Part shown: positions 65 to 22,407 of the stretch, piece by piece
Numbering within the stretch: position 1 is the first letter of the stretch
How the letters are laid out: each line of letters begins with the position of its first letter
DNA from: Candidatus Aenigmatarchaeota archaeon
Lineage (GTDB): Archaea; EX4484-52
Assembly: GCA_023137195.1 (NCBI GenBank)
Contig: JAGLPV010000009.1
Location: 1-24,546 of the forward strand
DNA: 24,546 nucleotides
Reading direction: 5' to 3'
The notes under the pieces: generated by a model
Seen by the model: only the letters and a program-made list of their open reading frames with translations
Told to the model about the DNA's origin: nothing
Databases searched by the model: none
Position numbers and translations under genes: made by a program

Positions 65-2944
65 TTACTTATCCTCCGTTCTGTGGACAGGACCGGATTT
101 TTTAACTTTCTCAGGAATGTCTTCAAATTTGGAAATATTTTTAGAGAACAAAGCCGCCAGCTCCTTTGCCTTTTTTTCATAAAGTTCTTTATCTTCCCAT
201 AGGCTTTTTGGATTTAGCACAGCATCCTCAACACCCGGACAGCTTTTTGGAACCATCAGGTTAAATATTTCATCCAGGACAAACTCAACATCTTTCAAAT
301 CCCCTTTTATCGCCGCATTGACCATCGCCCTGCTGTATGGAATACTAATTCTCTTACCGACCCCATAAGGTCCGCCAACCCACCCTGTATTTACGAGGTA
401 AACATCTGTGTTATGATCAGTGATATATTTTTCCAATAAAGAAGTATACACATTTGGTTTATGTGGCATAAACGGTTCGCCAAAAAACATAGAGAATACA
501 GCGACAGGTCGGACAATGCCCTGTTCAGTTCCTGCCAGTTTGCTCGTGTACCCGGAAATGAAATGATACATCGCCTGATTTTTGTCTAATTTAGCAATGG
601 GAGGCAGGACGCCAGAAGCATCAGCAGTCAAAAAGATTATCGTTTTTGGATGCCCTCCAATGCCGTCGACTTCTGAATTATCTAAATGTTCTATGGGATA
701 TGCAACTCTTGAGTTTTCAGTATGCCTGTCGTCGCTAAAATCAAATTCAAGTGCATCATCCAGGACAACATTTTCAACAACAGCCGCATTCTTTATTGCC
801 TTATGAATCTGCGGCTCTTTTATAGGGCACAAATCAATGCATTTTGCATAACATCCTCCTTCAATATTAAATACCCCGGCAGGAGACCATCCGTGTTCAT
901 CATCTCCAATCAGTTTTCTGGTGACATCTGTTGACAAAGAGGTTTTACCTGTGCCGGACAACCCCAGGAACAAGGCAACATTTCCTTCTTTATCTGTATT
1001 TGCAGAGCAATGAAGAGGCAATATTCCTTTCAGCGGAAGAAAGTAATTCATGACTGAAAAAACAACTTTTTTAATTTCCCCAATGTATCTTGTACCGCCG
1101 ATGATGGCAATTTTTTTCTCTAGGTTTATCAGAATAAATGCTTCTGAATTAATATTGTGGACAGAAGAATCCGCCTCACAATGTGGCGCACAGATAAGCG
1201 TGAACTCCGGTTTGTAGGTTTTTAATTCCTCTTTTGTCGGTCTTCTCAATAGGTGTATCATGCTCAAATTTTGACTGGCTAATTCATTGATGACTCTCAC
1301 ATTCATCGAATGCTTCTTATCGGCTCCGGCAACCCCGTCGCAGACAAAGACTTCTTCTTTTTCGCCCAGGTATTTCGTGATTTTTTCATACATTTTGTCG
1401 AAATCTTCAACATCGATAGGCACATTTATATCACCCCAGTGGATTTTGTCATGAACAGAGGGAGTGTCTACTATATATCTGTCGTTAGGCACCCTTCCTG
1501 TGTATTTTCCGCTAAGGACACGTAAGACACCGCTTTTGGAAAGAATTCCTTCTTTTCTCTCAACAGCTTTTTTAACAAGGACATCTGCATCCACATTATG
1601 GTATATTTTTCCTTTTGTCTTTATCCCTATATCTTCTGTTATATTATTCTCCCCTTCAACCATTCTTTTACACACAGTGTAAACATTATCGAACAATTCC
1701 GGCAGCAATTCCTTTTTTACAGAAGAATAAGAAACTCTCAACAAATCGCCTATTGAAATCAACCCGGTGCTGTATTCATCAAGCAGAAGTTTCCTGACCT
1801 TGTTTGCATCCAGGTTATTTTTTAATTTCACGCACATAAAGTACCCGGAATTAAATGGCAATGCCTCAAAATATTGCCTGTACTCTGTATGTTCTTCAAG
1901 AATTTTTACAACTCCATCATATCTACTCTTCAAAAGCCCATATTTCTCTTTTTTCTCCAACCAATAAGAATCAGATTTCATTGCCTCAACTATCAAGGTT
2001 TGCGACAGGTTGCATGCATTTGACACATTTCCACGGACAGCACCACCCGTTTTGGATTCAAGCACATTGCATATTTCAGGAGTCATATCTTTACATCCAT
2101 AAGTCATAAATCCAACTCTCAGTCCCCAGACATAGTCTTCCTTTGTAGCCCCGTCAATTTTAACTGCCAGGACATTTTCCCCGATATCGCATAATTTTGA
2201 AAAGAGTGATTCAGTATATATTCCCTTTTCATAGACAAGACCAAAATAAGCATCATCTATTATTACAACAATATTCTTTCCCAAATCCGCTGATTTTTTT
2301 ATTGCCGCAACTATTCGCTCAACCTCTTCATCAGATGGCGTAAACCCGGACGGGTTGTTTGGAAAATTCAAAACAAGAATTTTTTTAGTGCCTTCAGAAT
2401 TTAATTTTTCTTCCAGTCCCGCAACATTAAACCCGTTATTTTCAAAACAGGGAAAGGTAGTTATCTTCCCGCCATACGCATTTTCATACACCAGTTTATA
2501 ATTACCCCAGAATAAATCCGGCATAATCACTTGGTCGCCTTCATCTACGAACAAATACCCTGCAATGCTAAGAGCATGTGTCAGCCCGTTAGTTACAACA
2601 GGATTTGAAATCAAAGGAGCAACAAGTGAAGGATTTTTTTTAAATATCATCTCCTTCCATTTAGTTCTCAAATCATCCCTTCCAAAACTGGGAGCATAAG
2701 GAAATACAGTCCCCGGCGCAAGCGAAATATTTTTTTCAATTGATTTCAATCGCATCGGGCTGTTGTCATCTTCAACAGCAATTCCAATTGTCGCATTTAT
2801 TTTTTTCCCTTGAGCTTCTTTTGATTGTGCTAATATCCCTTGCTTTGGAAAAAATATAGATTTACCTTTTAATGAGAGCATGTCTAAAATAGCAATATTG
2901 GATTTCTCCAACAAGCTATTTAGCTCGATTGCCTGTGGATTCAT
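65..2944 (-). CDS. pckA: Fusion: N-terminal class I/II PLP aminotransferase (aspartate transaminase-like, ~1664-2944) + C-terminal ATP-dependent phosphoenolpyruvate carboxykinase (~65-1642)
   Basis: N-half has NFPNNPSG, DDAYFGL and KIDGATKEDYVWGLRVGF (PLP lysine); from memory it resembles the staphylococcal aspartate transaminase family. C-half has YTGR, IGGTRYIGEIKK, HCSAN, P-loop GLSGTGKTSLS, LIGDDEHGW and FNIEGGCYAK. Start moved from GTG 2953 to ATG 2944 because AGGTG (2951-2955) is an SD 6 nt upstream. Confidence 0.93.
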   Translation of the reverse strand: MNPQAIELNSLLEKSNIAILDMLSLKGKSIFFPKQGILAQSKEAQGKKINATIGIAVEDDNSPMRLKSIEKNISLAPGTVFPYAPSFGRDDLRTKWKEMIFKKNPSLVAPLISNPVVTNGLTHALSIAGYLFVDEGDQVIMPDLFWGNYKLVYENAYGGKITTFPCFENNGFNVAGLEEKLNSEGTKKILVLNFPNNPSGFTPSDEEVERIVAAIKKSADLGKNIVVIIDDAYFGLVYEKGIYTESLFSKLCDIGENVLAVKIDGATKEDYVWGLRVGFMTYGCKDMTPEICNVLESKTGGAVRGNVSNACNLSQTLIVEAMKSDSYWLEKKEKYGLLKSRYDGVVKILEEHTEYRQYFEALPFNSGYFMCVKLKNNLDANKVRKLLLDEYSTGLISIGDLLRVSYSSVKKELLPELFDNVYTVCKRMVEGENNITEDIGIKTKGKIYHNVDADVLVKKAVERKEGILSKSGVLRVLSGKYTGRVPNDRYIVDTPSVHDKIHWGDINVPIDVEDFDKMYEKITKYLGEKEEVFVCDGVAGADKKHSMNVRVINELASQNLSMIHLLRRPTKEELKTYKPEFTLICAPHCEADSSVHNINSEAFILINLEKKIAIIGGTRYIGEIKKVVFSVMNYFLPLKGILPLHCSANTDKEGNVALFLGLSGTGKTSLSTDVTRKLIGDDEHGWSPAGVFNIEGGCYAKCIDLCPIKEPQIHKAIKNAAVVENVVLDDALEFDFSDDRHTENSRVAYPIEHLDNSEVDGIGGHPKTIIFLTADASGVLPPIAKLDKNQAMYHFISGYTSKLAGTEQGIVRPVAVFSMFFGEPFMPHKPNVYTSLLEKYITDHNTDVYLVNTGWVGGPYGVGKRISIPYSRAMVNAAIKGDLKDVEFVLDEIFNLMVPKSCPGVEDAVLNPKSLWEDKELYEKKAKELAALFSKNISKFEDIPEKVKKSGPVHRTEDK

Positions 2945-2955
2945 AAATAACACCT

Positions 2956-3966
2956 TTATAGATCCATTGCCCTGTCCGTCATCGCTATACTTTCATCTGC
3001 ATCTTTTGTTAATTCAAACATCGCCCGTATGCAGTCTATATTTTCAGGCACAACATCTGATTCCTGGTGTATTGCCTGTATATAAAATAATTCATTTCCA
3101 ATTACATTGATGCTTTCATCCCACACAGCAATTTCATTAAGGTCTCCTCTTTTTCTCCCTAAATCTCTTGCGTGCTCCATAATTTCCGCGGTAGATGTAA
3201 TGCCTTCACTTGCCTTCACAAGAATAATTCGTGGTGTGCTTTTGAACAATTGTTTTATTTCCGCTGTTGTTGCAGGATTATTCATTTCAACAATAACTGT
3301 ATGAAGATGCATAAGTGTTGTAGGAACAATCACAGCAGAAGTCATGATGTCCATGTCAGGAAAAATTGTATTAACATCCGGTCCGTGATGGCTTGGAACT
3401 GTAACCGGATTAGGAACAATAGCATTTACTGGTCCTTTTTTGGAATTACCTGGGTCTGGTCCTCTCCTGATTAATGTCACTCTTGCCTTTTTGACACCAT
3501 ATTTTTTCTCAACAGCTCCAATAGTTCTGCAAAGCCCTGTTGTATTGCATGAGACCACTCGCACATAATCTTTACCCAAACAGGTCGCATAATTGCCCTG
3601 CGCATTAAAAGACACATCTCCTGTGCCTGATTTCTCGCCACCCTGGAAAATTGCCTTCACTCCTTTAGATTCATAAAGAGGCCTATTCATAGCCCCTATT
3701 TTGCCGGGAGTACAGTCAACAATAACATCACATTTATCAAGTAAATCATCAAGAGTGCCGGAAATTTCAAACCCTTCATTGATGAAAGTCTGCACATTTT
3801 CCATGTTGTTGGCATATAAGGCATACTCATTTTTTATCGCATGTCTCGCCTCATGAGTTGGTCTTGTCTTTACTACACCCACAACTTCCATATCCGGTTG
3901 TTTTGCTACTGCATCTGCTACTCGCTTGCCTATAGTTCCGTATCCATTTATTCCTACTTTTATCAT
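2956..3966 (-). CDS. gap: Glyceraldehyde-3-phosphate dehydrogenase, archaeal type II (phosphorylating)
   Basis: INGYGTIGKRVADAV, catalytic VSCNTTGL, PSHHGPDV, IHQESDVVPENID; SD GAGGAG upstream of ATG. Confidence 0.97.
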   Translation of the reverse strand: MIKVGINGYGTIGKRVADAVAKQPDMEVVGVVKTRPTHEARHAIKNEYALYANNMENVQTFINEGFEISGTLDDLLDKCDVIVDCTPGKIGAMNRPLYESKGVKAIFQGGEKSGTGDVSFNAQGNYATCLGKDYVRVVSCNTTGLCRTIGAVEKKYGVKKARVTLIRRGPDPGNSKKGPVNAIVPNPVTVPSHHGPDVNTIFPDMDIMTSAVIVPTTLMHLHTVIVEMNNPATTAEIKQLFKSTPRIILVKASEGITSTAEIMEHARDLGRKRGDLNEIAVWDESINVIGNELFYIQAIHQESDVVPENIDCIRAMFELTKDADESIAMTDRAMDL

Positions 3967-3999: not shown

Positions 4000-5235
4000 T
4001 CAACTGACTCTTGTAATCAAAGTGCTGTATTTTTTTGCTGAATTTACCAAAGCATCAACGCCGGGAAGACTTTTCCCTGAAATATACAATATAAATGCGC
4101 CGCCGCCTGTTGAAAAATGATCCATCTTGTCCAGCAAACCCATTTTTTCTGCCGCGATAGAAGAATCCCCTCCTCCGATGACAGCAAATGCTTTGCTCTC
4201 ATGCATTGCGTGAAAGAGCTCTTCAGTGCCCAGGGCAAATTGTTCTTTTTCAAATACACCTGCCGGTCCGTTACCCACGACAGTTCCCGCACCATCAATA
4301 ATCTCTTTATATAATTTGATTGTTTTCTTGCCAATATCCAATATTGGATAATCACTGGGAAGTGCCGAAAAAGGAATCTCCACTCTTTTTCCTTCTACTT
4401 CAATTGCAAAATCAATAGGCATCACAATCTTGTCCTTGTATTTTTTTAAAATTTTTTTTGCACTTTTAATTTCTAAATCTGCTTTTTTGTCAACCAAAAC
4501 ACTATGTGTTGCATTGCCAATATAATCCCCGTTTGCCGCTAAAAAAACCATAGAGACAAGCCCTGATGTAAGCACAGTATCCACTGCATCATTAGACAGC
4601 ATTTTTTCAATCACCATAATTGAATCATCTACTTTTCCTCCCCCGAGGCAAAGCACAGAAGGTCTCTGTGGATTTTCCATAAGTTTTGTCAATACCTCAA
4701 GTTCTTTTTGCAGTATTCTACCGGCAAAGGACGGTAAAACAGCAGGAAACCCAATCAAAGAGACATGTTCTCTATGATTCACAGCAAATGAATCATTAAC
4801 ATAATAATCAAAAAGACCGGACAATTCACGAACCATATGCGTTTTATGATGATCTTTTTTGACAGCAGTCTCTTCCACGGAAAATCTTACATTTTCCAGC
4901 AATATTATATCTCCTTTTTCCATCTCCTTGATGGACTTTTTTGCATAGCTTCCAAAAATATCGTCAATATATTTGACATCTTTTTCTATGTGCTTTGACA
5001 GGAGCTCAGCATGCTTTTCAAGGCGAATAAAATCATCGCCATTTAGCCTCCCCTGGTGGGCAAGGATAACAACCTTGGCTCCTTTATCAGACAACTCTTT
5101 TATGGTCTTTGAATGATGTTTTATCCGTATATTATCCACAGGTTCTTTATTTTCATCCACTCCTGAATTTATATCTGTTCTTACCAAAATGGTTTTCCCA
5201 TCAACTTCAAAATCATCGATAGTCAAAAAATGCAT
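4000..5235 (-). CDS. pgk: Phosphoglycerate kinase
   Basis: VRTDINS, AHQGR, LLENVRF, LGGGKVDD, NGPAGVFE, IGGGDS, HFSTGGGA. Confidence 0.97.
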   Translation of the reverse strand: MHFLTIDDFEVDGKTILVRTDINSGVDENKEPVDNIRIKHHSKTIKELSDKGAKVVILAHQGRLNGDDFIRLEKHAELLSKHIEKDVKYIDDIFGSYAKKSIKEMEKGDIILLENVRFSVEETAVKKDHHKTHMVRELSGLFDYYVNDSFAVNHREHVSLIGFPAVLPSFAGRILQKELEVLTKLMENPQRPSVLCLGGGKVDDSIMVIEKMLSNDAVDTVLTSGLVSMVFLAANGDYIGNATHSVLVDKKADLEIKSAKKILKKYKDKIVMPIDFAIEVEGKRVEIPFSALPSDYPILDIGKKTIKLYKEIIDGAGTVVGNGPAGVFEKEQFALGTEELFHAMHESKAFAVIGGGDSSIAAEKMGLLDKMDHFSTGGGAFILYISGKSLPGVDALVNSAKKYSTLITRVS

Positions 5236-5238
5236 AGT

Positions 5239-6033
5239 CTAATTGCCTCCATTCCCATTCCCTATATGCGTCCATCTACCGTCATAGACATAACCTGCCA
5301 GTTTTCCTTCATTGCAAAGGTTTGTGAATATATTTTCAAGCATGATTTTATTGTCTTCATGAGGAAGAAGTTCCAGTAATCTTGGCTCAATTATGAACAG
5401 CCCTGCATTTATCAAATGACTTGGAGATTCTTCAGCAGATGGTTTTTCTATAAATTTAGTGATTTTTTCTCCCTTTAATTTTACTACCCCGTAAGAACTT
5501 GTATCTGTTGAAGTAGTAAGTGCCATAGTAACGGTTGCCTTATGATTCCTATGAACTTTCAGCATATCATTTACATCGACATTGAATAAAATATCCCCGT
5601 ATAAAAGCATAAAAGTATTATTTATCATCCCCTTGGCTGATTTTAAAAAACCAACTGTCCCGAGAGGTTCATCTTCAATAATATACCTTATATTAATATC
5701 ATATTTTGTTCCTTTCCCAAAATAAGATATTATCTTATCATAATTATAATTTACAATCAAAATAATATCTGTAATGTCCTGCTTTTTTAAATATTCTATT
5801 GTATGTTCCAAAGCAGGTTTTTTATCAATAAGTGTCATTGCCTTGGGAGTTTCATCTTTATTCCCCCCGCAAAGAATAACTGCCTGGTTAAGACATTCTT
5901 CATTCATAGCTTTTAGCAAAAGCTTCTCTATCGCGTGCGACCTGTTCTTTATGCTGTATCCATTCACTCTTTTATCCAGCCAGCGAATCAAATTTTCATC
6001 TAAAGTTATAGATATGTGTTCTTTATTAGTCAT
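5239..6033 (-). CDS. Ribbon-helix-helix DNA-binding domain fused to a degenerate sugar-phosphate nucleotidyltransferase domain; putative regulator
   Basis: Residues 1-45 (HISITLDENLIRWLD...NRSHAIEKLL) fit the CopG/Arc/MetJ RHH pattern. The rest has NTP-transferase motifs AVILCGG, EDEPLGT, YGDIL, YGVV, FIEKP, INAGLFI. SD GGGAG 6 nt upstream. Confidence 0.85.
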   Translation of the reverse strand: MTNKEHISITLDENLIRWLDKRVNGYSIKNRSHAIEKLLLKAMNEECLNQAVILCGGNKDETPKAMTLIDKKPALEHTIEYLKKQDITDIILIVNYNYDKIISYFGKGTKYDINIRYIIEDEPLGTVGFLKSAKGMINNTFMLLYGDILFNVDVNDMLKVHRNHKATVTMALTTSTDTSSYGVVKLKGEKITKFIEKPSAEESPSHLINAGLFIIEPRLLELLPHEDNKIMLENIFTNLCNEGKLAGYVYDGRWTHIGNGNGGN

Positions 6034-6161
6034 ATTTATCTCCCGTTTAATGTATTATATTAGGTTGTATATATTTTTCAAATCGTAATACTTTGTGTTA
6101 TAAACAAGAGTTATGTTTAAAAAACTATCGAATGTAATAATCTATTAGTTGGTGAGATAAC
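6034..6161. promoter_or_regulatory. Divergent promoter region between the RHH-pgk-gap-fusion operon and gdh
   Basis: Minus strand has BRE/TATA-like GAAAAATATATA (6068-6079); plus strand has TTTAAAAA (6117-6124) and SD GGTGA (6151-6155). GTA(A/T)TA boxes at 6052, 6085 and 6134. Confidence 0.55.
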
Positions 6162-7409
6162 ATGACAGAAAAAATAAATCCTTATGAAGACGCTCTTAAT
6201 CGTCTGAGCGAAGTAGCTGAAAAATTCAATATAGCTGAAAAAGATATTGAGATACTAAAACACCCTAAAAAAATATTGATGGTTAATTTCCCTGTTCATA
6301 CAAGCAAAGGACTAAAAATCATTAATGGATACAGGGTCCAGTACAATGATGCTTTAGGACCCACAAAAGGCGGTCTGAGATATCACCCTCACGTTGATAT
6401 CGAAGAAGTCAAAGCCCTTTCCTTCTGGATGGCATTAAAAAATGCAGTCCTTGATCTGCCTTACGGCGGAGCAAAAGGAGGCATAACAATAGACCCGAGA
6501 GAATACACAAAAGAGGACCTGGAAAAGATAAGCAGGGAGTTCATAAGGCAGATTCATTTATTTATAGGACCCCAGATAGATATTCCTGCTCCTGATGTTT
6601 ATACAACCCCCCAGATAATGGCATGGATGATGGACGAATACAGCAAGATAAAAGGAAAGCACGTTCCCGGAGTGATTACAGGAAAACCATTGTCTGTCGG
6701 CGGAAGCTTAGTGCGTTCGTACTCCACTGCAATGGGCGGCTTTTGTGTGTTGAGAGAAGCACTTGCAAAATACAAGATAAACCCTCTTGAAACAAAAACC
6801 GCAGTACAGGGTTTTGGAAATGCCGGTATGAATTTTGCAGAAATAATGAAAGGACAGAACATGAAAATAGTTGCAGTAAGCGACAGTAAGGGTGGTGTTT
6901 ACAATGAAGAAGGATTAAACATAGAAGCATTGGTAAAGCATAAAAAAGACACAGGAACTGTAGTTGATTTCCCTAGCGCAAAAGCAGTAACAAACAATGA
7001 GCTTTTGGAATTAAATGTTGATATTTTAGTTCCCGCAGCACTTGAAAATGCAATTACCGAGGCAAATGCAGGCAACATAAAAGCAAAAATAATTCTTGAA
7101 CTGGCAAACGGACCTGTTACCCACAAGGCAGACAAAATGCTTTATGAAAAAAACATAGTTGTTTTACCCGACATTCTTGCAAACGCCGGCGGAGTGACAG
7201 TATCTTATTTTGAATGGATACAGAATCTTTACGGTGACAGATGGACTGAAGAGGAAATATTAAAGAAACTGGACAGTAGGATGAAAAAAGCATTTGACAA
7301 CCTGTACGACAATTACGTAACTCAGTCATATGTTGATTTCAGAACAGCCGCTTATGCATATGCAATAAAAAAAATAATTGAAGCAGAAAAAGACAGGGGT
7401 CATATTTAA
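6162..7409 (+). CDS. gdhA: Glutamate dehydrogenase (Glu/Leu/Phe/Val dehydrogenase family)
   Basis: GPTKGGLRY, LPYGGAKGG, IPAPDV, TGKP, QGFGNAG, ELANGP, PDILANAGGVTVSYFEW. Confidence 0.96.
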   Translation: MTEKINPYEDALNRLSEVAEKFNIAEKDIEILKHPKKILMVNFPVHTSKGLKIINGYRVQYNDALGPTKGGLRYHPHVDIEEVKALSFWMALKNAVLDLPYGGAKGGITIDPREYTKEDLEKISREFIRQIHLFIGPQIDIPAPDVYTTPQIMAWMMDEYSKIKGKHVPGVITGKPLSVGGSLVRSYSTAMGGFCVLREALAKYKINPLETKTAVQGFGNAGMNFAEIMKGQNMKIVAVSDSKGGVYNEEGLNIEALVKHKKDTGTVVDFPSAKAVTNNELLELNVDILVPAALENAITEANAGNIKAKIILELANGPVTHKADKMLYEKNIVVLPDILANAGGVTVSYFEWIQNLYGDRWTEEEILKKLDSRMKKAFDNLYDNYVTQSYVDFRTAAYAYAIKKIIEAEKDRGHI

Positions 7410-10330: not shown

Positions 10331-11833
10331 TTAATTATCATTTCCAAGAATTGTAAACTCTGCTTCTTTTTCAGTTGAATAATAATAATCTACTGTGACT
10401 TCTATGATTATTTCTTGTGTCATTTCTGGTGCAGTACTGGTAAAATCATCTCCTTTTAGTTTCTCTTCAGCCTCTTCATGTTCTTCTTCACCACCATCAC
10501 CAGGACCAACACCCGTTTGTGTTACTACATAACTACGATCTAAGAAAAAACAGCCTTTCTTATCTTTGGTTTTATTCCAGGCTTTAAAATCAAATACATT
10601 TTCAGAATAATCTATCTTAAAATAACCGTTTTCTCCCCACCAACTGCCCCAGCTGTTTTTGCACAGCCAGTAGCTTTTAATGTCATTATAGCCTATAATA
10701 GATATCGCATGCGTTCCAGTATAAGTTCCTGTTGGATTATTATAAATTCCGCTGGAATAAAAATCAAAATTATCATAAACAACCATATATGCTATTACAG
10801 GACCATAATCCTTTATGGCCTGTTTGATCGCATCAGCCGATGCAGGAAGTTTTTCATAATTCACAACATTTATCATGTTGTCTTTCCAATTCAGGCATTT
10901 TTCACATACATATTCTTCAATACAATCTTTGCCTGTTGAATTCCAATCTTTACAGCCAAGATAAGAAAAACAACTTTCGTCAACAATTCCTTTATTTTTA
11001 ATATAATTCAACGAAAGTTTTGGAGAACCACCATCACAATTACCCGCATCACTGCATGAAACCAGAGTCTGTTCAGATAAATCAATATCATAATCAGGAT
11101 TGTTTAATTCTATTTTTCTTCTTGATTCAACAGCAGATATTGTTGTAAATGCCCAACAGGAACCACAAGCCCATTGATTCTTTACTGGAGTGACCCAGTC
11201 ACCACCATTATCTCTCCAGTCAAGAGAAGGAGGATAATCATATCCGCCCAAAGCCGCTATTTTTGTAGTTTTTTTCTCTTCATCATCTACAATCAAATCA
11301 TCCTTAGGTAAAAACCCATCTCCTTTAAACAAAGGCTCATTATTAGCATCCATCAACTCCAAAACAGGAATCTCTTTAGTCTCTGTAGTTTTCACACCAA
11401 GGGCACCACCCTCTGGAGCATCAGCAGGAACTACACACACAGCATATTTATATGTCGCCGAACCTATTTGTTCACTAATATATTTTGTTTCATATCCTTT
11501 TTTGGCGCAATAAGAATAGTCTTTGCCGCATTTTCCCCTAAAGAAATCCCATGCATTGCATTTAAATCCATCATTAAATACACACAACCCATAAGAAGAT
11601 TCATCTGTCCGGACAATTTCATATTCATATCCAAGATTCTGGCAATAAACAGCAGCAGGATTTGCAAAACCCATTGTTTTTTCCAAAGGCGCATCATCTT
11701 TTGGCTCTGTCGCATACACAATATCAGTGTCTGTCGAAAACAAACTAATAATATTTGGTCCTGCAAATACAACGCATACAATCAGCAAAGCAGTTGTTAC
11801 AATCAGAACATCATCATTTGCTTTCAAATCCAT
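10331..11833 (-). CDS. Secreted or membrane-anchored papain-family (C1A) cysteine protease with DUF333 domain
   Basis: N-terminal hydrophobic helix; DUF333 pattern ANPAAVYC..LGY...C.F.DG..C.AWDFFRG.C; LDWRD, VTPVKNQWACGSCWAF, DLSEQ, THAISIIGY, KNSWG..WGENGYF. Confidence 0.93.
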   Translation of the reverse strand: MDLKANDDVLIVTTALLIVCVVFAGPNIISLFSTDTDIVYATEPKDDAPLEKTMGFANPAAVYCQNLGYEYEIVRTDESSYGLCVFNDGFKCNAWDFFRGKCGKDYSYCAKKGYETKYISEQIGSATYKYAVCVVPADAPEGGALGVKTTETKEIPVLELMDANNEPLFKGDGFLPKDDLIVDDEEKKTTKIAALGGYDYPPSLDWRDNGGDWVTPVKNQWACGSCWAFTTISAVESRRKIELNNPDYDIDLSEQTLVSCSDAGNCDGGSPKLSLNYIKNKGIVDESCFSYLGCKDWNSTGKDCIEEYVCEKCLNWKDNMINVVNYEKLPASADAIKQAIKDYGPVIAYMVVYDNFDFYSSGIYNNPTGTYTGTHAISIIGYNDIKSYWLCKNSWGSWWGENGYFKIDYSENVFDFKAWNKTKDKKGCFFLDRSYVVTQTGVGPGDGGEEEHEEAEEKLKGDDFTSTAPEMTQEIIIEVTVDYYYSTEKEAEFTILGNDN

Positions 11834-20867: not shown

Positions 20868-21122
20868 ATCCACGGAACGCACGGATGCGATAAAATCTCT
20901 ATGATTTTCTGCACATTCAATTTCATTGAATGACACACAAGAACCCACAGAACCGTTAAAATTATAGAGATTACAAAAAACAAAAAGTATTCTATTATCT
21001 CTTCACAAGAGGTAATAATAACTTAAATTGAGTGTGACCAGACTGTTTTTTATAGAGTGAACCAAAAATGCAATTTTTTTCTCCCCTTTTTCCCTGTGTC
21101 TTCTTGTGCGTTCCTGTGGATT
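20867..21122. repeat. Intergenic element bounded by imperfect terminal inverted repeats, with several internal hairpins (MITE/REP-like or structured RNA)
   Basis: Left AATCCAC-GGAACGCACGGA (20867-20885); right end (21102-21122) reverse-complements to AATCCACAGGAACGCACAAGA. Internal stems of 15, 8 and 11 bp. Confidence 0.65.
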
Positions 21123-22302
21123 AGTATTCCCCGATAATAAAGCAATGGTCTTTTTCAAGAGGGTCAAGATTTTTCCAGTCAAGTATTTTGAAATGCTTTT
21201 TTAACTCATCCAAAGCATAATCATATACTTCATATGGATTTTTTGTAGAATCAACAGACCGTGCCTTTAAAGCCAGCATAAACCGACCTTTTTTTTTCAG
21301 GAACAGTTTTGCATTCCTTATCAAAATATCAATCTGGTCTTTTTGTGCGACATCTTCAAAAATAATATCTACTTTGGAAACAAGATGGGCGTAATTGCCG
21401 GGAAGTTTTGCATTGTCGTATATCGGGACAATGTTATTTCTCTTGTGCATCTTTATGACAGAGAGCAGGTTCTGTATCGGCTTGAATGCAAATTCAACAC
21501 CGTAAATCAATCCGTTTTCTCCTATTAAATCAGATATATGCGATGCGGTTGTGCCGTCCGCTATGCCAAGATACAATATTTTAGACCCCTGCGGAATATC
21601 CCAGCAGGAAATGCCTTTTTTGATGGCAGCGCCAAGCTTTGATTTTTTCTCGTCCCATGTCCTGAATTCATCATTGCCTTTTTTTATCAGATTTTCAGAA
21701 TAGACCCTAAATCCAGGAGTAAGGCTTTTTGTTGTAAGTCTTCCGCTGATAGAAGAAAAATTAGGATTTGATATTTTGTACTGGGCTATGTTCTCTTTTT
21801 CTTTTTTTGGTTTGAATTTTTGTTTGTCATGGTGGTGTTCAAAGCGTTTTTTGTTTGGCGAGGTCGTTGAAAAGTCTTTATTTGAATCTTCGAAATTGTG
21901 TGATTTTTTCTTGTCGTGGTGGTGTTCAAAGCGTTTTTTGTTTGGTGGGGTCGTTGAATGTCCCTTATTGGAATCTTCAAAATCACGGGATTTTTTCTTG
22001 TCGTGGTGGTGTTCAAAGCGTTTTTTGTTTGGTGTGTTCATCGAGAATCCTTTATTAGAATCTTCAAAATCACGGGATTTGTTTTTGTCATTGGGTTTAA
22101 AGCGTTTTTTGTTTGATGGTTTAGAATGGTTCGTTGAGAATTCTTTATTATAATCTTCAAAAGAGCTGGATTTGTTTTTGTCATTAGGAGTAAAGCGTTT
22201 TTTGTTTGATGGTTTAAATCCGGAATTAAAGGATTTTTTATTTGAATTTTTGAAGTCACCGGATTTTTTCTTGAATTTTGGATTATATCTATTTTCGCCC
22301 AT
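21121..22302 (-). CDS. flpA: Fibrillarin-like rRNA/tRNA 2'-O-methyltransferase with long repetitive N-terminal extension
   Basis: FRTW...KSKLGAAI, ILYLGIADGTTASHISD, YGVEFA, NIVPI, DIIFEDVAQ.DQ, LKARSVD, LDPLEKDH. ATG 22302 preferred over 22341 because a T/A-rich TATA-like tract lies about 25 nt upstream. Confidence 0.93.
   Translation of the reverse strand: MGENRYNPKFKKKSGDFKNSNKKSFNSGFKPSNKKRFTPNDKNKSSSFEDYNKEFSTNHSKPSNKKRFKPNDKNKSRDFEDSNKGFSMNTPNKKRFEHHHDKKKSRDFEDSNKGHSTTPPNKKRFEHHHDKKKSHNFEDSNKDFSTTSPNKKRFEHHHDKQKFKPKKEKENIAQYKISNPNFSSISGRLTTKSLTPGFRVYSENLIKKGNDEFRTWDEKKSKLGAAIKKGISCWDIPQGSKILYLGIADGTTASHISDLIGENGLIYGVEFAFKPIQNLLSVIKMHKRNNIVPIYDNAKLPGNYAHLVSKVDIIFEDVAQKDQIDILIRNAKLFLKKKGRFMLALKARSVDSTKNPYEVYDYALDELKKHFKILDWKNLDPLEKDHCFIIGEY
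21820..22270 (-). repeat. In-frame tandem repeat, about 5 copies of 84-93 bp (28-31 aa)
   Basis: Anchor AAAGCGTTTTTTGTTTG at 21841, 21928, 22015, 22099 and 22192 (spacings 87, 87, 84, 93); encodes NKKRF...DKxKSxxFEDxNK. Confidence 0.95.
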
Positions 22303-22407
22303 GATTAATAATGGATAAAGAAATAATAAAAAGATGTTCATTTTTTTGGGTGTTTTGTATTAACTATCGTGCTTTTGAAAAGTCAGTCCGCAGAAATAAT
22401 ACATATA

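Follow-up and report, generated by a model that had tools for sequence, protein, structure and literature searches.

We analysed a 24,546-nt stretch of archaeal DNA (contig JAGLPV010000009.1 of a Candidatus Aenigmatarchaeota archaeon, here called the window) and in it a minus-strand gene (5239..6033) for a 264-aa protein that joins an N-terminal ribbon-helix-helix (RHH) DNA-binding domain to a sugar-1-phosphate nucleotidyltransferase fold. The fold of the protein, the loss of its catalytic motifs, its conserved gene order and a conserved candidate operator in its promoter were all established in silico. On these grounds we consider it quite probable that the protein is an autoregulated RHH repressor, whose pseudoenzyme body would sense a nucleoside diphosphate (NDP)-sugar or a hexose-1-phosphate as candidate ligand. 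The closest named proteins come from metagenome-assembled genomes (MAGs) labelled Nanohalarchaeota, Aenigmarchaeota or DPANN, and in public records such proteins are called 'sugar phosphate nucleotidyltransferase' or 'NTP transferase domain-containing protein'.

An RHH domain on a degenerate nucleotidyltransferase

The RHH domain comprises residues 1-48 (5890..6033, minus strand), with H6, S8 and T10 as predicted base-reading residues, aligned to R3, T5 and T7 of NikR. When the N-terminus of the window protein was searched alone, the Pfam RHH_1 match stayed below threshold (E 0.011; 16.1 bits against a cut-off of 20.5). A profile built from 23 N-termini of the family matched the solved structures of the Rv0298 antitoxin (4.7e-9), E. 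coli NikR (8.3e-9), CopG (3.3e-5) and P. horikoshii NikR (6.6e-4), and RHH_1 itself matched 16 of the 23 N-termini at E<=0.01. In the AlphaFold2 (AF2) model of residues 1-48 (pLDDT 83) an extended N-terminus is followed by helices 13-25 and 31-45. The top PDB match of this model was E. coli apo-NikR (TM 0.85, root-mean-square deviation 0.7 A over 43 columns, 35% identity) and the next ones were other RHH proteins, with weak Foldseek E-values (0.04) because the domain is small. Both the beta-alpha-alpha profile and the fold thus place the domain among the RHH proteins. An earlier reading, made from the sequence only, had proposed an RHH N-terminus and would have given up its proposal if structure prediction had yielded another fold; profiles and model both agree with it.

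The remainder of the protein, residues 49-259 (5257..5889, minus strand), has the sugar-1-phosphate nucleotidyltransferase fold and is read here as a putative sensor domain. For this protein Pfam returned only NTP_transferase and NTP_transf_3, besides the sub-threshold RHH_1. The NTP_transferase match (PF00483, E 1.2e-29) aligns residues 61-259 to profile positions 20-231 of 245, and therefore begins past the G-loop and stops at the WxD position. With the AF2 model of the regulator (pLDDT 87.6), Foldseek found UDP-glucose, dTDP-glucose and GDP-mannose pyrophosphorylases, including the GMPPA/GMPPB complex, at E 5e-19 to 1e-15; tlr0611, RmlA, VTC1 and GMPPB were matched at E 1e-17 to 5e-19. None of the best 25 of 34 NCBIfam matches came near its curated cut-off, the top one being Arch_glmU with 125 bits against 292.

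The fold and Pfam domain of an active enzyme are thus present, as are the E-K-P lysine and the sugar pocket, whereas the G-x-G-T-R-(L) loop and one of the two acidic metal ligands are absent. In enzymes of the RmlA/GlmU type, the loop Arg and the Asp of WxD have roles in the binding of nucleoside triphosphate (NTP) and Mg. In the regulator, the G-loop is reduced to the remnant L54-K64, LCGGNKDETPK (5842..5874, minus strand; residues 51-66 read AVILCGGNKDETPKAM), in which GxGTR is missing. Alignment (LCGGNKD-ETPK) shows that exactly 7 residues are deleted in comparison with the nearest full-length orthologues. The same deletion is found in 4/4 genomes of the genus and is therefore not an assembly error. 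The first metal ligand is present as D147. The second is replaced by His in W254-T-H256-I-G258 (5260..5274, minus strand); the PDB enzymes, which align from the 'PK' motif on, have W[IM]D[IV]G opposite WTHIG. Only six residues follow this motif before the protein ends, so that there is no hexapeptide domain. The C-terminal helix of the enzymes is missing too. The pocket motifs YGVV, FIEKP and LINAG are all found in the translation, and EKP, YGVV and LINAG are kept in 15/15 group-1 proteins (defined below). FIEKP contains the sugar-phosphate-binding motif E196-K197-P198 (5440..5448, minus strand), invariant across group 1. The shortened loop without GTR, WTHIG in place of WxDxG, the remaining pocket motifs and the lack of a hexapeptide-repeat domain had all been noticed in the sequence-only reading, and each was found as described there.

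A profile search over 42 genomes of the phylum, all of one order, recovered 15 high-scoring full-length orthologues (group 1), another set of fused proteins with lower scores (group 2) and unfused enzymes. Group 1 falls into four genera: g1 (n=4, including the window genome), g2 (n=5), g3 (n=3) and g4 (n=3). Each genus has its own form of decay. Besides the 7-residue deletion, g1 proteins have K, R, T or V at the position of the 'PK' lysine and His at the WxD position. The loop reads GQ[KR] in g2, with Lys and His at the same two positions, and GIGN in g3, with Glu and Asp (in G009, GN plus a 2-residue gap). In g4 it is G[AT][DT], with Lys and Asp. GxGTR is kept in 0/15 orthologues. On the other hand, E..P.GT.G, YGD, YGV, EKP, LINAG and GYVY.G.W are retained throughout the group. 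The reading frame is intact in 15 genomes of 4 genera, save a single TAA within the G019 match. Group 2 has decayed further, with EKP, INAG and Trp lost as well. The three unfused paralogues that were compared, among them that on contig C33 of the window genome, have GKGTRL, EKP and W[IL]D[IV]G. The window genome carries five NTP_transferase genes besides the regulator, of which the C33 enzyme is the best and has all canonical motifs (GGKGTRLRPLT...PKP, GGDN, REKP, WIDIG). The degenerate signature in all orthologues and its preservation in the unfused paralogues suggest that the fused protein is probably catalytically dead, in line with what the sequence-only reading had suspected.

Conserved gene order and a palindromic candidate operator

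The regulator gene is preceded by a GGGAG Shine-Dalgarno-like motif 8 nt before its ATG and heads a tightly packed minus-strand operon. The phosphoglycerate kinase gene pgk (4000..5235) starts 3 nt past the regulator stop codon. It is followed after 33 nt by gap (2956..3966), encoding a type II (archaeal) GAPDH, and 2 nt further by the final gene, a 962-aa fusion of an aminotransferase and an ATP-PEPCK (65..2953). The sequence-only reading had seen the gene as the head of a pgk-gap-fusion operon and had advised comparing the neighbourhoods and catalytic residues of homologues. In this comparison, the operon assignment was borne out along with the loss of GxGTR: pgk lies directly downstream of the regulator in 14/15 loci, and in the 15th (G010) the contig ends 98 nt past the gene. 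The next gene after pgk is gap in 12 of the 13 loci that are long enough, the exception being G019 with an inorganic pyrophosphatase. In g4, a PGK of a different type (24% identity to that of the window; Pfam PGK E 9e-42) holds the same place in the operon, a non-orthologous displacement under what would be conserved regulation. Two small open reading frames (ORFs) of 74 and 84 aa without family match stand between regulator and pgk in this genus (L041-L043), and FBPase class I and FBA class II come after gap. A glutamate dehydrogenase (GDH) gene (6162..7409, plus strand) is divergent from the regulator, with which it shares a 128-bp intergenic region (6034..6161) containing both promoters and the candidate operator. 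This arrangement is found in three g1 genomes, the other two being G020 and G021.

Upstream of the orthologues we found a 17-bp palindrome, GTAATAC-AAA-GTATTAC (unbroken GTAATACAAAGTATTAC), with a 7-3-7 layout. It is perfect in 12/15 group-1 promoters and has 1 mismatch in G016. The window copy (6085..6101; ATAACAC-AAA-GTATTAC on the minus strand, ATAACACAAAGTATTAC) has 2 mismatches; its distance is 51 nt to the ATG of the regulator and 61 nt to that of GDH. Across the group, a TATA-like box stands upstream of the palindrome, whose end is 13-51 nt from the ATG. Anchored at the site, 23 comparisons between genera gave 100% identity for the site itself, 40% for the 30-nt left flank and 29% for the 13-nt right flank. 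When the 42 genomes were searched with <=1 mismatch and a free spacer, 34 sites were found, against 15 for a reversed-pattern control.

Some further sites were rejected as operators. In g2, the extra 1-mismatch sites belong to a separate region without ORFs, where the repeats are direct and not inverted. These regions (L080 3790-4660, L081 3851-4415, L083 3788-4859, L086 3653-4238, L087 2192-2745; about 0.5-1.1 kb) contain several direct repeats GTAATAC-N3-GTAATAC, spaced 10 nt or about 440 nt, and adjoin genes for thymidylate kinase and a Hel308-like helicase. They may represent a replication origin or a locus for non-coding RNA and have no relation to the inverted operator. In G033 (L091 3636-3652, L092 4017-4033) and G034 (L093 1-17), two genomes with no detectable group-1 gene or fused regulator, perfect arms occur with other spacers, but not at relevant promoters. 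One of these sites is inside an ORF beside a gene for the origin-associated OapC; another has convergent genes on either side and precedes an enolase-like gene by about 420 nt.

We also searched for the palindrome at other promoters. In the 1.42-Mb assembly of the window genome (G000; 57 contigs, 85% complete, the window being contig C57), the 17-mer is matched with at most 2 mismatches at two sites only, namely the window promoter and C17:32926-32942, which sits 39 nt upstream of enolase. Sites with 2 mismatches are found in the enolase promoters of G006 (GTAATACAACATATTAA at -33) and G004 (GTAATACAAGGTATTTA at -32), and in G001 the enolase promoter has 3-mismatch sites only. Six sites with <=2 mismatches are present in G006, three of which lie ahead of the regulator operon, ahead of enolase and, by 6 nt, ahead of a PPS/PPDK-like gene. 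The remaining three are, in turn, intergenic without a nearby gene start, before a 95-aa ORF and inside an ORF. In G000, no site within 4 mismatches was found upstream of the PPS/PPDK, PK, PFK, TIM or PGM/PMM-like genes. The promoter region of its PPS/PPDK gene (start at 55189 on contig C7) has a tandem direct repeat some 60-90 nt before the start, ACAATATAC ACAATATAC ACAAT, which is distinct from the palindrome.

The case for the unfused nucleotidyltransferase as a second target is weak. The sole perfect TAATAC-N3-GTATTA of G000 abuts the ATG of the C33 enzyme (shuffled-arm controls gave 0-1 matches), and g3 genomes have GTAATACAA[TC]ATATTAC upstream of the C33 orthologue. No such site precedes this orthologue in G019, G020 and four g4 genomes, and in g2 only the left arm is present. 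Sites near the alanine dehydrogenase gene (C15; 3 mismatches, 15 nt upstream) and an acyl-CoA-synthetase-like gene by C33 were not retained as targets, since 3-mismatch sites are too common. Outside the window, 6/10 examined sites fall inside ORFs.

Several features of the neighbouring genes were recorded alongside. In the fusion protein (65-2953, minus strand), the class I/II aminotransferase occupies residues 72-421 and the ATP-dependent PEPCK residues 449-910; in G021 the aminotransferase has an ORF of its own (441 aa), which is not followed by a PEPCK part. If the fusion is real, it could channel aspartate via oxaloacetate to phosphoenolpyruvate (PEP). On contig C47 of G019 (L048), two RHH-nucleotidyltransferase paralogues (3031-3816 and 5111-5935) lie on one strand, 1.3 kb apart, with an SRP54-type GTPase gene and a PQ-loop/SWEET-like gene between them. 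The window contains the archaeal markers type II GAPDH, S19e and fibrillarin. The fibrillarin domain covers only residues 197-406 of a 406-aa protein (21121-22341, minus strand), whose 196 N-terminal residues have no Pfam match. A 500-aa papain-family cysteine protease with an N-terminal DUF333 domain (10331-11833, minus strand) is unusual in a small DPANN-type genome.

Proposed mechanism and alternative explanations

The protein would be a one-component transcription factor, and we infer its DNA binding, its repressing action, the identity of its ligand and the sign of regulation as follows. RHH proteins are obligate dimers that read DNA with a two-stranded antiparallel sheet; the NikR-like domain would likewise pair with that of a second copy to form a DNA-reading beta-sheet that recognises GTAATAC-AAA-GTATTAC. 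As the centres of the operator arms are 10 bp apart, probably two RHH dimers (a tetramer) bind on one face of the DNA. A position downstream of the TATA-like box is usual for archaeal repressors, and occupation of the palindrome at its own promoter would lead to repression. The body has lost the NTP-phosphate loop and one metal ligand, and its sugar/nucleotide pocket is retained; with catalytic parts lost and pocket kept, it would serve as a ligand sensor that tunes DNA binding. The predicted regulon consists of its own operon (pgk, gap, aminotransferase-PEPCK), probably the divergent GDH gene and probably enolase. The retained pocket, together with the NDP-sugar, PGM/PMM and Embden-Meyerhof-Parnas (EMP) neighbourhoods of sister subfamilies, suggests a sugar-1-phosphate or an NDP-sugar as ligand. 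Since the pocket is shared with a loop-deleted clade that stands beside epimerase genes (see below), an activated-sugar signal is favoured over a glycolytic intermediate. PEPCK, GDH, FBPase and PPS suggest end-product control of gluconeogenesis. This part is uncertain, because pyruvate kinase and a PF00365 PFK are likewise encoded in G000, whose 85%-complete assembly yielded no FBPase.

A number of observations weigh against the proposed repressor. In the operator copy of the window the left arm is degenerate, and the group-1 promoter of G019 has no palindrome within 3 mismatches. The co-occurrence of gene and site is trivial, because the site is part of the gene's own promoter. TATA-like boxes stand on both sides of the window site, so repression and activation cannot be told apart from the sequence. 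No enolase-promoter site was found in G002, G019, G021, g3 or g4; the enolases of g3 and g4 are of a different type. Genome-wide counts of sites with <=2 mismatches (6, 11, 2, 5 and 1) are not above those of the reversed-pattern control (17, 17, 3, 8 and 4); it is therefore only through their positions and surroundings that the enolase and PPS sites count. Finally, the window protein retains the PK lysine (K64), D147 and EKP, and residual chemistry is possible.

These retained residues would also fit a bifunctional enzyme-repressor like BirA, NadR or PutA, in which the body still makes an NDP-sugar and the RHH domain couples catalysis to transcription. Some members of the wider family do keep all catalytic motifs (GGKGTR[LM] in 10/10 loci of a set selected by this loop). 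Against this, seven loop residues including Thr-Arg are deleted in the window protein and WxD is WxH. The PK lysine varies within the genus (K/R/T/V), the full catalytic set is present in no group-1 lineage, and the genome holds an intact unfused enzyme and four further NTP_transferase genes. We regard the bifunctional enzyme as quite unlikely. Another explanation takes the protein for a protein-level regulator of a true nucleotidyltransferase, as in GMPPA/GMPPB, with RHH serving only dimerisation and another factor binding the palindrome. In PMC11228364, GMPPA is described as a paralogue without catalytic activity that regulates GMPPB and binds GDP-mannose. The GMPPA/GMPPB complex is among the fold matches, and the co-occurrence of gene and site is not independent evidence. 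However, the RHH reading residues are kept within subfamilies and co-vary with the subfamily operators across distant lineages, and the gene heads pgk-gap and not a nucleotidyltransferase gene, which makes a purely protein-level role unlikely as well.

The palindrome could also act as RNA, namely as a hairpin in the 5' leader that affects stability or translation: its distance to the ATG is 13-51 nt, and its arms could pair into a 7-bp stem, with AAA as the loop. Such a stem would be AU-rich and weak, though, and all 17 positions including the loop are invariant across genera, with no compensatory changes, while the variants in G016 and G000 alter one arm only. We therefore hold a hairpin to be very improbable. 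Equally, the loop deletion, the C-terminal truncation and the degenerate operator copy in the window genome might be seen as signs of a decaying fused enzyme without current function. The frame, intact in 15 genomes of 4 genera except for the TAA in the G019 match, the strictly conserved pocket motifs and the conserved gene order leave this idea scarcely credible.

The wider family and comparison with known systems

We searched 1.84 billion cluster representatives (50% identity) for relatives and called the RHH head with an N-terminal hidden Markov model (HMM). An RHH head was present in 86 of the best 150 cluster representatives. Among these 150, GxG[TS]R was found within the first 130 residues of 14/86 RHH-fused and 39/64 unfused proteins, some of the unfused ones being N-terminal fragments. 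After removal of 19 near-duplicates and non-RHH outliers, a quick maximum-likelihood tree of 79 rows grouped g1 (support 100) with g2 (97) as its sister and left g4 outside the pair. Sequences labelled Nanohaloarchaea, Asbonarchaeaceae and Halorhabdus are found in a separate clade (99), in which 8-10 residues of the loop are deleted; the loop was therefore lost at least twice. Part of the wider family keeps every catalytic motif: of ten full-length metagenome loci retrieved with a canonical-loop alignment, for which the selection pattern itself includes this loop, 10/10 read GGKGTR[LM]. The family displays stages on a path from enzyme to sensor, from a canonical loop through a degenerate full-length loop to a deleted one.

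Outside the order, the full-length fused relatives are not beside pgk or gap and have NDP-sugar genes as neighbours. In L111, L113, L114 and L115, labelled Nanohaloarchaea or Asbonarchaeaceae, an epimerase/dehydratase gene lies close downstream; a small opposite-strand ORF intervenes in L114 and L115. L116, L118 and L187, which come from an Iainarchaeum MAG, an unnamed archaeon and Methanosarcinales MAGs, face a divergent gene cluster that encodes UDP-glucose dehydrogenase, epimerases and an unfused nucleotidyltransferase (by Pfam). L170 (3.7 kb) shows the same arrangement, as judged by ORF size and BLAST only. Group 2 of this order likewise belongs to clusters of this kind, with carbamoyltransferase, UDP-glucose dehydrogenase and GT4 genes. 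Among the canonical-loop members, PFK-GAPDH is the divergent neighbour in L200 and PFK that in L198. PGK, FBA II and PfkB stand upstream of the L199 gene, whose contig has a trigger factor gene besides, and PGM/PMM comes next after the genes of L191 and L193. The neighbours of L192, L194, L195, L196 and L197 are uninformative.

Sister subfamilies have palindromes or repeats of their own, which adjoin TATA-like boxes. A palindrome script found arms of at least 6 nt in 8/17 upstream regions, some of them irrelevant (tRNA genes in one), and direct repeats were identified by eye. The site is ATCATAC-ATA-GTATGAT in L116 and L118, where the RHH strand reads R-V-T-I-T as in NikR, and (A)TATTAC-N3-GTAATA(T) in L111 and L113 (R-[IV]-S-x-T). 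Group 2, L187, L170, G022 and G018 have TATC[CT]TAC / GTAGGATA repeats and the strand K-[IV]-S-x-T, and group 1 has GTAATAC-AAA-GTATTAC and [HR]-I-S-x-T. At the level of sequence, the candidate operators of the subfamilies co-vary with the predicted DNA-reading residues, which is useful for the study of RHH specificity evolution. Within group 1, H versus R at reading position 6 did not co-vary with the operator and was dropped as a determinant.

Taken together, these data may point to a family of one-component regulators, large and so far undescribed, in ultra-small archaea and bacteria (with 86 clusters or more at 50% identity within the best 150 hits). In this order, rewiring would have given one of its branches lower EMP/gluconeogenic genes (pgk, gap, eno and PEPCK, with FBPase and FBA in one genus) as targets in place of NDP-sugar operons. 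The RHH code would be readable as R/H-x-S-x-T for GTAATAC, R-x-T-x-T for GTATGAT and K-x-S-x-T for GTAGGAT. We put this broader proposal forward tentatively, at slightly less than even chances. If the rewiring is true, central carbon flux would be subject to feedback from the size of the activated-sugar pool, and no dedicated central-carbon regulator would have been proposed for DPANN archaea before this one. Gene regulation has hardly been explored in these archaea, and a regulator, a candidate operator and a small coherent regulon are predicted here with enough precision for work with recombinant protein, without culturing the organism. Metabolic reconstructions of DPANN and Candidate Phyla Radiation (CPR) organisms would count such proteins as enzymes, which they probably are not.

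Of the known systems, NikR (PDB 1q5v, 2hzv, 2bj1) is closest to the head in sequence and fold. It shares with the regulator the RHH head with the same beta-strand pattern, the order of RHH and C-terminal ligand-binding domain, and, as far as the candidate operator goes, a palindrome whose arms contain GTAT. The half-site of NikR is GTATGA, with the operator arms about 16 bp apart, and GTATGAT arms are also those of the sister subfamily with the NikR-type strand R-V-T-I-T. In place of the ACT-like nickel-binding domain of NikR, the regulator has a nucleotidyltransferase fold as putative sensor; the arms of its candidate operator are separated by 3 bp, and its predicted targets are carbon-metabolism genes. 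The body resembles the PF00483 enzymes (RmlA, GMPP/VTC1, GalU-like tlr0611, the N-domain of GlmU/ST0452; Foldseek E 5e-19, TM 0.72, 24-30% identity), from which E..P.GT.G, YGD, YGV, EKP and INAG are retained. It differs from them in the deleted GxGTR loop, the change of WxD to WxH, the lack of a C-terminal helix and the added RHH head.

A functional analogue without homology is the bacterial CggR, which combines a helix-turn-helix (HTH) head with a SorC-type sugar-phosphate domain, neither of which Pfam found in the regulator. The gapA operon controlled by CggR includes pgk. In Bacillus subtilis, this SorC-family protein represses the gapA operon as a tetramer on tandem operators and answers fructose-1,6-bisphosphate (FBP), according to PMC2943609. 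GfcR of Haloferax volcanii, as described in PMC10838023, regulates central sugar catabolism including GAPDH and combines a phosphoribosyltransferase (PRT)-fold sensor with a DNA-binding motif. It is likewise archaeal, with an enzyme-derived sensor, but has HTH instead of RHH, a PRT instead of a nucleotidyltransferase fold, and is an activator. GMPPA, a non-catalytic paralogue of GDP-mannose pyrophosphorylase, offers a precedent for the proposed sensor role within the same fold (PMC11228364). Here too a nucleotidyltransferase fold is reused as product sensor (7d72 is among the fold matches); however, GMPPA is eukaryotic, has no DNA-binding domain and acts on the enzyme by protein-protein contact. 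In the full-text literature, whose coverage leaves out subscription-only papers, no description of an RHH-nucleotidyltransferase regulator was found. The one-component regulator with an enzyme-derived sensor is a kind already known, and the regulator described here would be a variant of it. Specific to this case are the link to pgk-gap(-PEPCK)/enolase, the order-wide palindrome and the extreme loop deletion.

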